Program-made: the position numbers and the translations under genes | The notes under the pieces: model-generated | The model's input: only the letters and a program-made list of their open reading frames with translations | Databases searched by the model: none | Told to the model about the DNA's origin: nothing | Shown: positions 2,975-10,152 of the stretch, in pieces | Numbering within the stretch: the first letter of the stretch is position 1 | Layout of the letters: every line of letters begins with the position of its first letter | NCBI GenBank assembly: GCA_030614005.1 | Contig: JAUWKS010000002.1 | Span: 60,001 to 92,000 of the forward strand | DNA: 32,000 bases | Direction: 5' to 3' | From: Candidatus Heimdallarchaeota archaeon | GTDB lineage: Archaea; Asgardarchaeota; Heimdallarchaeia; JABLTI01

Positions 2975-3115
2975 GCTCCTCTGCCTATGCTTCAAGTCTT
3001 CTCTTCATCGAGGTGGTTGCCCTCTCTGAGTTAACAGTATCATGGTCAGTGAAGGAATGCATCTCAGCATCCATAGCAGTGTTGAGTTCTTCTCGTCTAC
3101 TTGCCGACAGTGAGA
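2975..3115 (-). ncRNA. Candidate structured RNA overlapping the 3' end of the RAMP-HD gene
   Basis: GC 69/150 (46%) over 2971-3120 versus 31/120 (26%) over 3121-3240. Hand-found hairpins at 3091-3115, 3054-3072 and 3010-3024, plus a CUUCA/UGAAG closing stem. Confidence 0.4.
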
Positions 3116-4112
3116 TAATGCCTTTGTTGATTTTTAACTTATTGTCATAATAATCATTTATTGCCAAGTTAACCATTATTAACAGATGATTTTGTAAAGT
3201 GCTCTTTCCATAGAGCATTGATTCTACAATTCTATTTAATTCTTGTGAACAGTGGATATAGGAATATAATTTTATGTGACTGTTTTGCTGTCCTTCGATT
3301 TCTTTTTTCAGTTGTTTGAAATCAATACTTCCGTCTAATTTATTATATCGAAAAATTGTTTTGAATGGTTTCTTCCGAGTAATGTAAGAAGCAAAACCGT
3401 CATAGTATTGAATGAGTGAATGATAAGGATTCTCTCGAGATAATGAGGTGTGATGATGTAAACATGCTTCCCTTATTTCTTCATCTTCAATGTCTATCTG
3501 TTGGAAAATTTTACTATTGTGCTTTTCTGTGTGGACAAAATCATGAAGCATAAGAGCGATAAGCAACCTTTGTAATTCTTCGGGATAATCAGCTCGTATA
3601 CCAGCTCGAATTTTGAATTTCTTATAACACCATGTTTGATTGCAAGTAAAGCATCGTTTGCGTTTAGAACCTTTATCATAAATGACCGTTGTATTCTTGC
3701 ACTGAGGACATTTTTCAGATAGGGGAACAAATACAGTTGGAGTTTTGTGTGAATGCTCTTTTATTTCACACGATTCCCAAATAACTCGACCGAGTCCTTC
3801 AGCAGTTTTCGTACCCAGGAATGTTTTCTGAAGAAAATATCCTATCTTACGTTTTAGTTGTTCTTCTGAATACCCCATGCAACTGACTTTCACATATCCT
3901 CTAAAACCTTGCAAAACGGATGGATATTGACTCATGCAATAAACTAACTTCCCAATAGAAGTAAAAAGGGGTTTGGATTCTTTTTTTGGATCTCCAACCA
4001 CTTTTACTAAACAACCATGTTTCCAATAAGTTGACTTAGAAATGACGATAGGGGTTAGCAAACGACCTATAAGGACAGCAATTTTCTTTTGTTTTACTTG
4101 TAAGTTTTCCAT
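2985..4112 (-). CDS. Fusion of RAMP-like (Cas5-type) domain, Zn ribbon and Cas10-type HD nuclease domain
   Basis: N-terminal 'LLTPIVI...FRGYV...FLGTKTAEGLGRVIW' (G-rich loop); CPQC...CFTC; 'LMLHDF...CLHHH...YYDGFAS...STLQNHLL'. Start moved to ATG 4112 (GGAG upstream); the track uses GTG 4124. Confidence 0.75.
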   Translation of the reverse strand: MENLQVKQKKIAVLIGRLLTPIVISKSTYWKHGCLVKVVGDPKKESKPLFTSIGKLVYCMSQYPSVLQGFRGYVKVSCMGYSEEQLKRKIGYFLQKTFLGTKTAEGLGRVIWESCEIKEHSHKTPTVFVPLSEKCPQCKNTTVIYDKGSKRKRCFTCNQTWCYKKFKIRAGIRADYPEELQRLLIALMLHDFVHTEKHNSKIFQQIDIEDEEIREACLHHHTSLSRENPYHSLIQYYDGFASYITRKKPFKTIFRYNKLDGSIDFKQLKKEIEGQQNSHIKLYSYIHCSQELNRIVESMLYGKSTLQNHLLIMVNLAINDYYDNKLKINKGIISLSASRREELNTAMDAEMHSFTDHDTVNSERATTSMKRRLEA

Positions 4113-5029
4113 GCATCTAAACACTCCTGTAATAATTTATTTTGAGATTTAGTTCTTTCAACCTCAATGATAGATAATCTCCCATCTCCATTTTCTTGCC
4201 CCAATTTTCTCTCGAAAACTATCTTCTCATATGAAACATCTTTTATCTCAAGACGACCATATCCACTATTGCTCCCTCGACCAAGATGTTTTAATGATAG
4301 AATCCCATCTATGAGTAACCCAAGTAACCATTGCGGTAGGTTGTCTGAAAATTCCACATAGAATTGAAACTCTCCACTGAAATATTGTTCACTAAAGTCT
4401 TGCAAGACTTTTCCATCTCTTCGAGAAGCATGACGATTCTCAGTTGAAACATGAACAAATGAAAGACCTTTTTGAGTAGTGATTTTATTCAAAGGTTTGT
4501 CGGTTTGTACGAGAGCATCTGTCCAGATTCTTATGCATGACTTCTCCCCAAGCATACCAAATAATTGCCTTACTGCGCAGGGATTCTCTCCACATTTGCC
4601 CATAAGATGTTCGTTGATTAGCAAGGTTGGCTCATCATTGCTTTTGAATCTCTCTTTCATAGTAGGAGAACAATATTCTATTCCTCTGTTATGTAGAATC
4701 TCCATGATACTATGTCTAATTGCACCACGAACACCCTTAACCACTCGAGAGCTTCCAAGTTCTTCTTTAAGGGTAATGATTTGTATTTTAGAGTCGCTTT
4801 TCTTTCCTTCTACTTTAGCTCTTAACTCAGTTAAATCATCAAGAATCAAATCTTTGTTGAGTGAGAGGAATTCCTCTATTTCGGAAACCTTAACATTTGT
4901 TCTGCCTTGAAATTGATAAGGAACATTTCCACCCTTCATAAGAAAGGAACTCGAACCACTGCTACCATTAAGTGTTTTCGTGAACCAAGCATACACCTTT
5001 ACTGTTAAACGATTGAATGTTGTAGCCAT
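4094..5029 (-). CDS. Cas7/Csm3-like RAMP superfamily protein
   Basis: 'SSRVVKGVRGAIRH' (S-x-KG-x-R type motif), Cys cluster 'EYC...KCGENPCAVRQLFG', and C-terminal G-rich loop 'LGRGSNSGYGRLEI'. Start probably ATG 5029 (MATTF); ATG 5041 is the alternative. Confidence 0.85.
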   Translation of the reverse strand: MATTFNRLTVKVYAWFTKTLNGSSGSSSFLMKGGNVPYQFQGRTNVKVSEIEEFLSLNKDLILDDLTELRAKVEGKKSDSKIQIITLKEELGSSRVVKGVRGAIRHSIMEILHNRGIEYCSPTMKERFKSNDEPTLLINEHLMGKCGENPCAVRQLFGMLGEKSCIRIWTDALVQTDKPLNKITTQKGLSFVHVSTENRHASRRDGKVLQDFSEQYFSGEFQFYVEFSDNLPQWLLGLLIDGILSLKHLGRGSNSGYGRLEIKDVSYEKIVFERKLGQENGDGRLSIIEVERTKSQNKLLQECLDAWKTYK

Positions 5030-5048
5030 TTCAATTACCATATAAATA

Positions 5049-5509: not shown

Positions 5510-7711
5510 ATGCCTGCGAGAGAAAATATTTTTGTGAAATGGTTAAAAGATAAAAGCAAAAGCAAGGGATTAGAAATACCAAAAAACACTACTGGAATTT
5601 TTACTACAAATAAAACTCATTTACCTCAAAATCTCCAAACCTTAGCGAAAACGATACTTGAATTAGGGGAAAGAGATGGCGAATTAGGAATACAAGCATT
5701 ACTACTGAGATTGAAAGGAGCAGAACGAGTAAATCAGCAAGATCTTCCATATGTTCATTCGGCTTTAGATACTGTAGTCTCCAGTTTAGGATATGAGAAT
5801 CGGAATGAGTTAATTCAATTCTTTGCAGTACCAGATGTTGATAGAAAAACCGTTTACAATCCGGATGAAGATCAAATATTTGATGAGAAAATGGGGGAGA
5901 TTTATACCGCAGTTCTTAGTACGATTCAAAAAGTTCGTCCAGGAATCCAAGTTACTCTTCCAAGGTTAGCTGAGCTTGCTAAATCACCGAAAAAATTTGT
6001 TGAAGAGGTTATCCTTGCGATTCTTGAACAAAAACCAGTACTTGGAGAATACCTACAATTTGAACAGGTATTCATTCGAGAAGAAGATACAGATGAGCTT
6101 ATTGATGAATTGATCGCTCAACCTATACCACGCTATGGGCACTTTCATTGCTCTCACTGTCAAGAAATTATAGAAAATCGGTCTGCAAATACTTGTCCAT
6201 CATGCGGTGAAAAAGTTTCCCGCTGTATAGTTTGTAAACTCCCAATCTCCGCTGATGATAGCATTGGCAAATGTTCACAATGTGAAGGGTTAGCTCATCT
6301 AACACACTTACAAGAATGGGTAAAAGTCAAAGGGAAATGCCCAAGATGTTTACAAGCTACCAAAGTAGTTATTTTGAAAGAAGCTAAACCAATACAGGAA
6401 GAAAAACTGGCATTTGGAATAGAATTGTCAGGTATACAAATTGTTAATTCCGGCGAATGGAAAGATATACCTGAAGGCTCTACTGTTGATGATGTTCAAG
6501 GGTTTTTCAATATGCTCTTTGCCACTAATGAGAAAAAATTATTCCTCTGGCGACGTAATAAACTTCATTCTATAGGTTTTTTTGAGCATGGCAAATTCTT
6601 TATTCATGAAATGAAACTTTTCGATTCGGTAAAGGAATATCTAATTGCTACAAATGTAGGATTAAAAACACCAGAAAGTCTACAAAGATATAGAGAAGCT
6701 CGTAGTTTTGGATGGGAAAATTATGAAATAGTGGATAATATTTGGGAAGCTATAAATAAAAGATATTCAAGTATTGAATATAGTTACGGGCACAGAGCCG
6801 GGGAACAGTTTAGTTTTAAATATGAAATTATGCGTCATCCTTTTATTGAAGAAAAATACCCAGAATTAGTGTATGGTTTAAAATCAAATAGTATATGTTA
6901 TGAAATTTTACCACCTTTAGATTCCGATATCATCTATGGTGAAGATTGGTTTATTTGGTTATTAGCATATGAAAGTGGTTGGGAGTCATTTAAGAAACTA
7001 AACGATTTTGCCAGAAGTGTTTTTCCAGAATTTCAAGAGCTATATAAAGAATGGATAGAAAGAGATGTCGATAGAAAAAATAAACAAACAAAGAAACGTC
7101 CATTTAGGGATTATTATAAACTTAGTCAAAAAATGGATCCAATTAGTTATACAAGAAGAAAAACACATGTAACTAAAAAACAGGAGATTTATTTCTCAGA
7201 GAGATATGAAAGATTCCTCAAATTACTATTTTTAGCAATTTACGGTCCCTTCAATGCAAACGATGATTGGTTACAAGGATGGCCAAATTTTAATTCTCTC
7301 ATGGATTTCTGGACTAAAAAGGAAGATATTCATCATTTCTGGAATCCAAATTTAAATGAATATATTACCGTTAAAAAACATCTTGAGAAAAACATCCTCC
7401 CAATGAAAATCTACCCTGCAATAGTACCATATGATTCTTCTTGTAAAAATAGTTTAGATTGGATTTTTTGGGCTTTAGCAATAACAAATGATTGGCAATC
7501 GTATAAAGATGTAATTGAGTTAGCTGCTGAAAAAGAAAGCGAAGTAAGAAATTCATTAAATAGATTTCAAGACCGAGATAGAAAGAAATGGACAGATGAT
7601 GTACTAAAATATATTATCATATATGAAATCGCTAATAGAAGACCACTTGAAGCATCGAAAATGGAAATAGTTGTTGACCTTGATTATAATAAAATCAATT
7701 TTTCAAGTTGA
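5510..7711 (+). CDS. Large protein with central Zn ribbon and RING-like finger
   Basis: 733 aa. CSHC...CPSC followed by C-x2-C-x12-C-x2-C-x4-H-x2-H-x3-W-x6-C-x2-C. Flanking regions not recognised. Confidence 0.75.
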   Translation: MPARENIFVKWLKDKSKSKGLEIPKNTTGIFTTNKTHLPQNLQTLAKTILELGERDGELGIQALLLRLKGAERVNQQDLPYVHSALDTVVSSLGYENRNELIQFFAVPDVDRKTVYNPDEDQIFDEKMGEIYTAVLSTIQKVRPGIQVTLPRLAELAKSPKKFVEEVILAILEQKPVLGEYLQFEQVFIREEDTDELIDELIAQPIPRYGHFHCSHCQEIIENRSANTCPSCGEKVSRCIVCKLPISADDSIGKCSQCEGLAHLTHLQEWVKVKGKCPRCLQATKVVILKEAKPIQEEKLAFGIELSGIQIVNSGEWKDIPEGSTVDDVQGFFNMLFATNEKKLFLWRRNKLHSIGFFEHGKFFIHEMKLFDSVKEYLIATNVGLKTPESLQRYREARSFGWENYEIVDNIWEAINKRYSSIEYSYGHRAGEQFSFKYEIMRHPFIEEKYPELVYGLKSNSICYEILPPLDSDIIYGEDWFIWLLAYESGWESFKKLNDFARSVFPEFQELYKEWIERDVDRKNKQTKKRPFRDYYKLSQKMDPISYTRRKTHVTKKQEIYFSERYERFLKLLFLAIYGPFNANDDWLQGWPNFNSLMDFWTKKEDIHHFWNPNLNEYITVKKHLEKNILPMKIYPAIVPYDSSCKNSLDWIFWALAITNDWQSYKDVIELAAEKESEVRNSLNRFQDRDRKKWTDDVLKYIIIYEIANRRPLEASKMEIVVDLDYNKINFSS

Positions 7712-9237: not shown

Positions 9238-10152
9238 ATGAGTACAAGTAGTCCAACAGCACAAGGAAAAAACTTCTCACTCATAGAGGATAAAAAGAAG
9301 ATATTTATCGAGTGCAGAGATTTGATTAAAATCTATGCAGATGAAAAGAATAGAGTCAGAGTTCCTGCACTTCGTGGATTAGAAATGCAAATTACTCAAG
9401 GGGAAATCTCACTCGTAGTTGGACCCAGTGGTTCAGGCAAATCCACTCTTCTCAACATTCTTGCAGGCAATCTACTACCTTCAGCTGGGTTAGTGAGAGT
9501 AGGAGATACTGATATTGCAAAATTCTCTCGTTCTAAAATGGTCGATTATAGAAAAAGACGTGTTGGAGTTGTTTGGCAACTTCCACAAATGAATCTTATC
9601 TGGGAACTTTCTGCCTCACAAAATATTCAAGTGCCGATGAGAATTCTCGGTATGCCTCGTGAAGAGCGAATGGCTCGTACCCGTGAACTTTTAGAAGAAG
9701 TAGAATTACTCGATAGAGCTCATCATAAACCTACACAGCTCTCTGGAGGAGAGATTCAAAGAATCTCTTTAGCTGTTGCACTTGCTAATAGACCTGAACT
9801 AGTTGTTCTCGATGAACCCACAGGAGAATTAGATTCACAAACTTCTGGCAAAATTATTGATTTCCTTGAAAAAGTTAACAGAGATCTTGGTATTACCATG
9901 ATTTTGGCTACTCATGATCGCAGATTAATGGCTCGTGGTTACCGTACAATGTTACTAGTCGATGGGCGCATAACCAGTGTTCGAAGAGGTTTTGTTAATC
10001 CAGAGAAAATACCTGTTTTTGTTGATGCTTTTGGCGCACTACAAATCCCCCTAAACCTTCGAGAGAGGTTTCAATCCCGTGAAGATATTATTCTAAGTCG
10101 CGAATCTGAAGAAGTCTACAAAATATTTGTTCCAGAAGACGAAGAGCATTAG
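9238..10152 (+). CDS. ABC transporter ATP-binding protein (LolD/MacB-like) with C-terminal AbrB/MraZ-like extension
   Basis: Walker A 'GPSGSGKS', signature 'LSGGE', Walker B 'VVLDEPT', H-loop 'ATHD'; tail 'VDAFGALQIPLNLRERF'. Confidence 0.9.
   Translation: MSTSSPTAQGKNFSLIEDKKKIFIECRDLIKIYADEKNRVRVPALRGLEMQITQGEISLVVGPSGSGKSTLLNILAGNLLPSAGLVRVGDTDIAKFSRSKMVDYRKRRVGVVWQLPQMNLIWELSASQNIQVPMRILGMPREERMARTRELLEEVELLDRAHHKPTQLSGGEIQRISLAVALANRPELVVLDEPTGELDSQTSGKIIDFLEKVNRDLGITMILATHDRRLMARGYRTMLLVDGRITSVRRGFVNPEKIPVFVDAFGALQIPLNLRERFQSREDIILSRESEEVYKIFVPEDEEH

Follow-up and report, generated by a model that had tools for sequence, protein, structure and literature searches.

A predicted Cas10-type HD domain in permuted order on a Cas5-like RAMP protein of an Asgard ARAMP module

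Described systems and the Heimdallarchaeota gene pair

Modules of the ARAMP type were reportedly described originally by Makarova et al. in 2020 (CRISPR J 3:156) and, to our knowledge, have been named but never tested. The passages on ARAMP in two summaries place these modules in Asgard archaea and describe them as derived from type III systems, with diverged Cas5 and Cas7 proteins and without a CRISPR array (PMC8730458, PMC12669027); one of these passages reports a distinct Cas1 in most, although not all, of the loci (PMC8730458). Both name HNH and PD-(D/E)xK as the usual nucleases, and a Cas10-type HD domain on Cas5 is not mentioned in those passages. Our study concerns a pair of genes in a stretch of 32,000 nucleotides from Candidatus Heimdallarchaeota archaeon (assembly GCA_030614005.1, contig JAUWKS010000002.1, positions 60,001 to 92,000 of the forward strand), which is referred to below as the window and in whose coordinates all positions are given. 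The pair consists of a Cas7-like RAMP gene (its product is P0002) and a gene that encodes a fusion of a Cas5-like RAMP domain, a zinc ribbon and an HD domain (P0001). It fits ARAMP, as one copy of the module: in agreement with the summarized description, the host belongs to the Asgard archaea, the Cas7 and Cas5 proteins are diverged, an array is absent, a diverged Cas1-like gene accompanies three out of seven copies of the pair in the genome, and a PD-(D/E)XK nuclease is found at two copies (c4 and c5).

In the HD domain of Cas10 the order of the motifs is permuted, a His having shifted from the domain's N-terminal end to its C-terminal end (PMC7689449, PMC3150331, PMC3902914), and the two orders have been written as HD...H...D versus H...HD...D (PMC3902914). 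One of these papers terms the permutation a characteristic feature of type III that Cas10d lacks (PMC3150331). The HD domains of Cas3/Cas3'' and Cas10d belong to the same superfamily as the domain studied here and have the same types of ligand, whereas the His of motif I stands before HD in those proteins and after it in ours. By its description, subtype IV-C has retained a Cas10-type HD domain in a reduced type III derivative that lacks a cyclase, as in ARAMP. In IV-C, however, Csf1, a substitute for the large subunit, carries the domain, and arrays are present, whereas in ARAMP the domain sits on a Cas5-like protein and there is no array.

We consider it quite probable that residues 168-340 of P0001 form an HD nuclease domain homologous to that of type III Cas10, permuted in the manner of Csm1 and carried by a Cas5-like RAMP protein without palm domains that belongs to one copy of an ARAMP module. 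The gene and the elements of its HD domain are as follows:

2985..4124, minus strand: gene of the Cas5-like RAMP/zinc ribbon/HD fusion (P0001), an open reading frame of 379 amino acids from the GTG at 4124
3105..3623, minus strand: predicted HD domain (residues 168-340), Cas10/Csm1-like and circularly permuted (from the model, the structure search and hhalign)
3537..3548, minus strand: LHDF, the HD dyad (H194, D195) in the first helix of the HD domain, invariant
3519..3521, minus strand: H202 in KHxSK(I/L), which resembles KHSKLG of Csm1 (from conservation)
3450..3455, minus strand: H224-H225, the HH motif, comparable to YHH/KHH in Cas10 (from conservation)
3387..3407, minus strand: YYDGFAS (D242), a D..AS..R motif comparable to YIADNIASGxDRR in Csm1 (from conservation)
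3162..3203, minus strand: late His helix STLQNHLLIMVNLA (H313 at 3186-3188), the counterpart of HD motif I, with an invariant His

The likely start of P0001 is the ATG at 4110-4112, where its homologues and the database copy begin, giving a protein of 375 amino acids. The original prediction had claimed a motif order of HD, HH, D..AS, a helical insert and a late His, and this order holds when the coordinates are translated, with a helical/beta-hairpin insert separating YYDGFAS from the late His helix. That helix had been placed at about 3180-3203; it is indeed present there, although the range was slightly short at its low end, since the helix occupies 3162-3203 and so runs past 3170. The resulting arrangement, with HD first and an 'SLxxH' helix last, is the permuted order of Csm1, and no conserved His helix stands ahead of HD, unlike in the HD domains of Cas3 and Cas10d.

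Conservation of these motifs was followed through the family. A search of 5.8 billion proteins yielded 75 homologues of P0001, none of them carrying a name and nearly all from metagenome-assembled genomes of the Heimdall group or other Asgard archaea. In an alignment of 31 homologues H194, D195, H202, H224, H225, D242 and H313 are invariant, as are G104, G110, G112 and W116 of the G-rich loop of the RAMP domain, and the same seven His and Asp residues stay invariant when two paralogues of 44-62% identity are added (n = 33). A profile search of 1.84 billion representatives returned 123 family members or fragments, and there was no Cas10 among the matches of this HMMER family profile. The most distant full-length relatives (P0112, P0140, P0165, P0170, P0196 and P0199) have retained HD and the D..A..R motif together with the late His of 'xHL', and this His does not vary even among relatives detected at an E-value of only about 1e-4. 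The motifs of the ARAMP family can be written as LHDFVH, KHxSK(I/L), NHH, YYDxLASxIxRKK and NSLRNHLL; the corresponding series in Csm1 proteins from Asgard genomes and from PDB entries is LHDIGK, KHSKLG, (Y/K)HH, YIADNIASGxDRR and, about 100 residues later, (D)ISLxDH. Judged by sequence conservation, the motif order is genuine and under selection rather than a product of chance, because it is kept in homologues down to the most distant relatives. The ligand set of the HD superfamily (His, His-Asp, Asp) is present in H194-D195, D242 and H313, accompanied by H202, H224 and H225, and the presumed metal ligands are all intact.

Fold and profile evidence for a Cas10-type HD domain

The predicted fold provides evidence for the relationship. 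The HD domain modelled alone (residues 166-345) reached a predicted local distance difference test (pLDDT) score of 91 and a predicted template-modelling (TM) score of 0.89. When this model was compared exhaustively with 48,161 PDB representatives, Cas10 provided four of the five best matches: 6ifk_A (Z 7.9, root-mean-square deviation 4.0, 152 aligned residues), which was the best of all, 6mua_A (Z 7.0), and the Cmr2 chains 9x25_B (Z 4.5) and 6s6b_K (Z 3.6). The best unrelated chain in this search had a Z of 3.9, generic HD hydrolases (Rel, YhaM, 2pq7) matched at about Z 3, and the top 50 contained no Cas3, Cas10d or HD-GYP chain. In the model of the whole protein (pLDDT 80), which comprises a beta-rich N-terminal domain, the ribbon, a helical domain and a tail that is disordered from residue 341 onwards, the helical domain likewise matched Csm1 6ifk_A in an exhaustive structural search, with a Z of 8.5. 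On re-examination, the Foldseek candidates included 20 entries of Csm1, drawn from five species, with Z of 6.1-9.8; the next match had a Z of 2.9. It is important to note that our fold argument rests on this gap to the next matches and on the coverage, and not on Foldseek E-values.

The 20 Csm1 alignments also bear on the position of the late His. They run from model residues 14-17 to 180 and from Csm1 residues 1-2 to 231-250, and at the start of the alignment model residue 16 pairs with Csm1 residue 2; if this stretch is ungapped, H29-D30 of the model would fall on H15-D16 of Streptococcus thermophilus Csm1. The His of 'DISLADH' in that protein is residue 201, within the aligned range. We infer a place for H313 at the metal site only from this collinear alignment with Csm1, which extends to about residue 238 and thereby spans H201. 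For the Csm1 proteins of S. thermophilus (6ifk/6ifl), E. italicus (9g9a), T. onnurineus (4uw2) and S. epidermidis (7uzw), the fold is collinear with our model over about 130-154 residues, the order (HD, K-H, HH, D..AS..R, 'SLxxH') is the same and the wording of the motifs is similar. There are differences as well: the ARAMP domain lies C-terminal to a RAMP domain, whereas that of Csm1 begins a palm/cyclase protein; the D motif and the His helix are separated by a shorter insert, of about 70 residues as against 100-120; 'HDFVH' stands in place of 'HDIGK'; and the similarity of the profiles is weak.

Profile comparisons with hhalign were made against four groups of HD domains. In its native order, the ARAMP HD profile aligned with 12 unpermuted Asgard Cas10 HD domains (described below) at a probability of 92.8% (P 4e-7, score 50.4) over 83 columns that span HD, H, HH and D..AS..R. 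When the late helix was moved to the front, the match to the same 12 domains stood at 94.6% (P 6.6e-8, score 53.9) over 105 columns; the alignment thus gains the His helix and 22 columns, and the late helix is aligned with 'SL..HL..T.A' of Cas10. The native profile gave 10% (P 0.003, score 27.2, 63 columns) against six Csm1-type HD domains, 0.9% (P 0.06, score 18.6, 31 columns) against 16 Asgard Cas3 HD domains and 0.7% (P 0.077, score 19.9, 20 columns) against 12 Cas10d-like HD domains. The control scores were 15.0 for a reversed target and 8.7-16.7 for twenty column-shuffled targets, so that the Cas3 and Cas10d-like scores are at the level of background and shuffling and, among these groups, unpermuted Asgard Cas10 is the significant one. 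An initial hhalign comparison with five Csm1 N-termini had yielded a probability of 1.5%, with the His helix as the sole aligned piece; with -mact 0.01 the Csm1-type alignment is collinear over 169 columns, His helix included. When 4,472 proteins (the open reading frames of the genome itself, 21 Cas10 and 20 Cas3) were searched with hmmsearch, the seven family copies were followed by three Cas10 proteins as the next best matches, whose alignments run across HD, HH and D..AS..R. Native and de-permuted profiles were not discriminated by hmmsearch, where only one unpermuted Cas10 (L069) rose, from 6.2 to 9.3 bits. A relationship to the Cas10 HD domain, as had been suggested from the sequence of the window, is therefore borne out by the gap in the fold comparison and by the hhalign P of 4e-7.

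It is very improbable that the domain is instead of the Cas3 or Cas10d type, or a generic HD-GYP or phosphohydrolase domain in which the late His is incidental. The generic HD family of Pfam (PF01966) is the only library family that matches, and it does so below threshold in 17 of the 33 members scanned (best E 0.0019); the same scan produced no HD-GYP or Cas3_HD match. Set against this sub-threshold similarity are the shuffle-level hhalign scores for Cas3 and Cas10d-like domains, the composition of the 50 best PDB representatives, and the invariance of the late His in distant relatives.

Many type III Cas10 proteins of Asgard archaea carry a 'PADTRxP..SL..HL..T.A' His helix 45-65 residues before 'LHDIGKP', that is, an unpermuted HD domain. 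We found them at the loci L034, L036, L058, L059, L061, L063 and L066-L069, in the genomes G003, G032, G112, G004, G076, G017, G064, G070, G047 and G001, and PADLOC confirms the unpermuted proteins as Cas10 with E-values down to 3e-69. When this group is compared with Csm1-type HD domains by hhalign, its N-terminal His helix pairs with the C-terminal one of Csm1 (score 53.3). The premise of the original prediction that type III Cas10 has a late His stands for classical Csm1 and Cmr2 and does not stand for a sizeable group of Asgard Cas10. These unpermuted domains bear on the textbook view of the permutation as a hallmark of type III, and also on evolutionary schemes that put the change in His-helix order on the type I-D branch.

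The unpermuted HD domain of the Asgard Cas10 proteins at the loci L034, L036, L058-L061, L063 and L066-L069 is the best sequence relative of ours, and the organisms that carry it are of the same phylum as the host. In those proteins, however, the His helix precedes HD and the palm domains follow, whereas in the ARAMP protein the His helix comes last and nothing comes after it. Because the best sequence match has an unpermuted HD domain, the permutation of the ARAMP domain could have arisen independently, and both a single origin and an independent permutation are possible routes. The loss of palm domains by a Cas10 ancestor, followed by fusion to a RAMP protein, as the original prediction proposed, would be a putative direction and route. 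We hold it possible, if rather unlikely, that fold and function are as proposed here while the permutation is independent, the domain having come from an unpermuted Asgard type III Cas10 and having been rearranged on joining the Cas5-like domain. Two findings favour this course. First, the hhalign scores are 50.4-53.9 against Cas10 with 'PADTR.P..SL..HL' followed by 'LHDIGKP', and only 27.2 against Csm1-type domains. Second, the junction of the de-permuted profile is seamless, and the loop 'KIRKGLG..' ahead of the ARAMP HD helix aligns with the inter-helix loop of Cas10. On the other hand, the whole domain model is collinear with the Csm1 HD domain, which is permuted in the same way; the Csm1 alignment contains only six poorly aligned sequences, and its lower score may be technical; and at -mact 0.01 the collinearity with Csm1 covers 169 columns and the His helix.

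The RAMP domain, its partner and the proposed function

The remaining parts of the protein and its partner gene are the following:

3735..4097, minus strand: N-terminal RAMP domain with a single RNA recognition motif (RRM) fold and a G-rich loop (G104, G110, G112, W116), from the structural search
3627..3713, minus strand: CxxC...CxxC zinc ribbon that separates the RAMP domain from the HD domain, from a match below cut-off to the S27e-like ribbon of Pfam (E 1.5e-4)
2985..3104, minus strand: C-terminal tail of P0001, residues 341-379, of low confidence (pLDDT <50)
4094..5041, minus strand: Cas7-like RAMP gene (P0002, 315 amino acids), the upstream partner, from Pfam RAMPs and PADLOC Csm3

An exhaustive comparison of structures matched the N-terminal domain of P0001 to RAMP subunits from complexes of types III, IV, I and VII, among them 9g9a_G (Z 8.2, 114 aligned residues), 7xfz_B (Z 7.7) and the Cmr3 chain 3w2v_B (Z 5.8). 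These matches make the RAMP fold clear; the domain has only one RRM, and the scores do not separate Cas5 from other RAMP groups. An N-terminal extension of 120-220 amino acids in some Asgard Cas10 proteins was considered as a counterpart of the ARAMP RAMP domain and was ruled out (hhalign P 0.76). The absence of a palm or cyclase domain, which had been claimed from the sequence, is upheld by two observations: the protein ends about 40 low-confidence residues past the HD domain, and no Cas10 profile of PADLOC or NCBIfam matches it. As a separate observation, the zinc ribbon is an insertion; in the alignment of 31 sequences only P0001 and its five closest relatives carry it, and in the remaining family members the RAMP and HD domains are joined directly.

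The Cas7-like protein matches the Pfam RAMPs family (PF03787, E 8.5e-8) and PADLOC Csm3 (E 1.4e-7), and its conserved motifs are KGxRG..H, C/H/C/C, STENR and a G-rich loop; the 3' end of its gene overlaps the start of the open reading frame of the HD gene. When the complex of the Cas7-like protein and the HD protein (residues 5-345) was predicted, the pair passed with an ipSAE of 0.66, against 0.00 for the best control; of 80 solved complexes 58 reach the mark applied in such predictions, as do 2 of 110 mismatched pairs. At least 65% of the contacts were common to the runs, and the pLDDT of the partner was at least 75. The predicted interface is located on the RAMP domain around the G-rich loop, away from the HD domain. 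In a distant metagenomic family member of 536 amino acids (P0112), Cas7-like and Cas5-like-HD proteins are fused in one polypeptide, and this fusion independently supports the idea that the two work together.

Cas10 is seated on Cas5 (Csm4/Cmr3) in the complexes of type III, and a fusion of the HD domain to a Cas5-like protein would accordingly keep HD at the same end of the Cas7 filament. We propose that the Cas7-like protein and the Cas5-like domain would assemble on RNA, as class 1 effectors do, with the HD domain thereby placed at the Cas5 end of the complex, the site of the HD domain of Cas10. With its ligands intact, the domain would be expected to be a metal-dependent nuclease; by analogy with the HD domain of Cas10 it would cut nucleic acid, most likely single-stranded DNA, and it is this analogy that suggests both the activity and the substrate. 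No signalling by cyclic oligoadenylates would be expected, because neither the module nor the genome yielded a cyclase. If this proposal is right, the presence of an intact Cas10-type HD domain on a Cas5-like subunit would give ARAMP a concrete predicted catalytic centre, and it would add to the RAMP proteins a second line of evidence that links these modules with type III.

That the HD site is intact and yet does not cut single-stranded DNA seems unlikely to us; the domain would then cut RNA or a nucleotide signal, or would serve as a structural or regulatory substitute for the large subunit. Members of the HD superfamily hydrolyse many phosphoesters, and Rel/SpoT and other HD hydrolases are among the weak structural matches of our model (Z ~3); moreover, the roles of the Cas10 HD domain in vitro vary, and mutation of HD in S. 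epidermidis Csm1 only reduced the cleavage of single-stranded DNA (PMC3902914). Against this, the sole strong relatives of the domain are the HD domains of Cas10, which are named single-strand-specific deoxyribonucleases in PDB entries, and seven invariant His and Asp residues favour catalysis over a scaffold. A nuclease acting on single-stranded DNA hence remains the function that we prefer.

It is important to consider several observations that weigh against the interpretation given here. The match to Csm1-type HD domains, whose order is permuted, is weak (27.2, P 0.003), and the significant match is to unpermuted Cas10. Pfam (at threshold), NCBIfam and PADLOC scans of P0001 give no HD domain and recover only the zinc ribbon, the PADLOC scan giving no match to the protein. 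Sequence searches of the PDB, both with the single protein and with the profile of 31 sequences, do not recognise the HD domain, and returned only the S27e-like ribbon and a non-significant match to the G-rich loop of Csm3. The Foldseek E-values are poor: the best is 0.74, and nothing falls below 0.001 for either model against the PDB, where Csm1 chains still had the highest TM scores. A Z of 8-10 is, in absolute terms, middling for a helical domain, and a shape search of the ESM Atlas was uninformative (TM at most 0.35). The predicted complex may reflect likeness to solved Cas5-Cas7 complexes and is not proof of binding. Finally, there is no CRISPR array in the assembly (scanned for 20-mers) or in the window, and a guide is thus unproven.

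Genomic copies, the C-terminal tail and neighbouring genes

The genome (an assembly of 3.6 Mb, 90% complete) holds seven copies of the pair of Cas7-like and Cas5-like-HD genes, and in all seven the Cas7-like gene comes first and abuts or overlaps the second. All Pfam RAMP matches in the assembly belong to these seven cassettes, and searches of this 90%-complete assembly gave no match to Csm1, Cmr2, a Cas3 HD domain, Csc3 or a canonical Cas1. Neither a direct-repeat array nor a tRNA nor an Rfam match is present in the window; metagenome-assembled genomes often lack arrays. Across 200 sampled genomes of Asgard species, the HD domain was present in 14, with up to 11 copies in one of them.

The C-terminal tail of P0001 is probably not a protein domain but an embedded, conserved element of the nucleotide sequence that is translated. 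In the paralogue c5 (L022, around 9950-10040) the same conserved nucleotide block sits past the stop codon; it reads ATCTCA..ATCGGCAA...GATGyTGAGATGCAT and holds an ATCTCA/TGAGAT inverted pair. A quick RNAalifold run on the seven gene tails gave no usable structure; the alignment was poorly anchored and the ends of the paralogues differ. We can conceive of ARAMP as a minimal type III derivative in which a Cas7 filament and Cas5-HD would load a structured RNA encoded by the cassette instead of a CRISPR RNA, with an independently permuted HD domain as the sole output, and we regard this scheme as doubtful. If it were true, it would imply a second, convergent permutation of one nuclease fold and an RNA-guided DNase without array, cyclase or helicase.

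The gene that neighbours the pair in the window is divergently oriented (5510-7711, plus strand) and encodes a protein of 733 amino acids with a double zinc ribbon/RING-like region; its homologues adjoin three of the seven cassettes (c1, c3 and c4). In a metagenomic protein of 475 amino acids (P0119), the C-terminal half of an ARAMP HD domain (51% identity, E 1e-19) and the ribbon of this neighbour (54% identity, E 2e-23) are directly joined, which could be either a rearranged remnant or a real association.

The copy in the window has no adjoining Cas1-like gene or PD-(D/E)XK nuclease. Copies c4-c6 adjoin a gene of 672-698 amino acids, the c4 member of which is a weak Cas1 match (PADLOC E 5.5e-5), and c4 also adjoins a PD-(D/E)XK nuclease (Pfam E 1.2e-9) that has a homologue next to c5. 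The neighbour set of c4 lies at L021:12411-18497 (genome C67), and a similar one is found near c5 and c6. In c4 this set is composed of a protein with a LAGLIDADG-like segment and a helix-turn-helix (523 amino acids), a helix-turn-helix protein (246 amino acids), the protein of 672 amino acids with the weak match to the C-terminal part of Cas1, and the PD-(D/E)XK nuclease, and the set at c4-c6 looks like the 'full' form of ARAMP.

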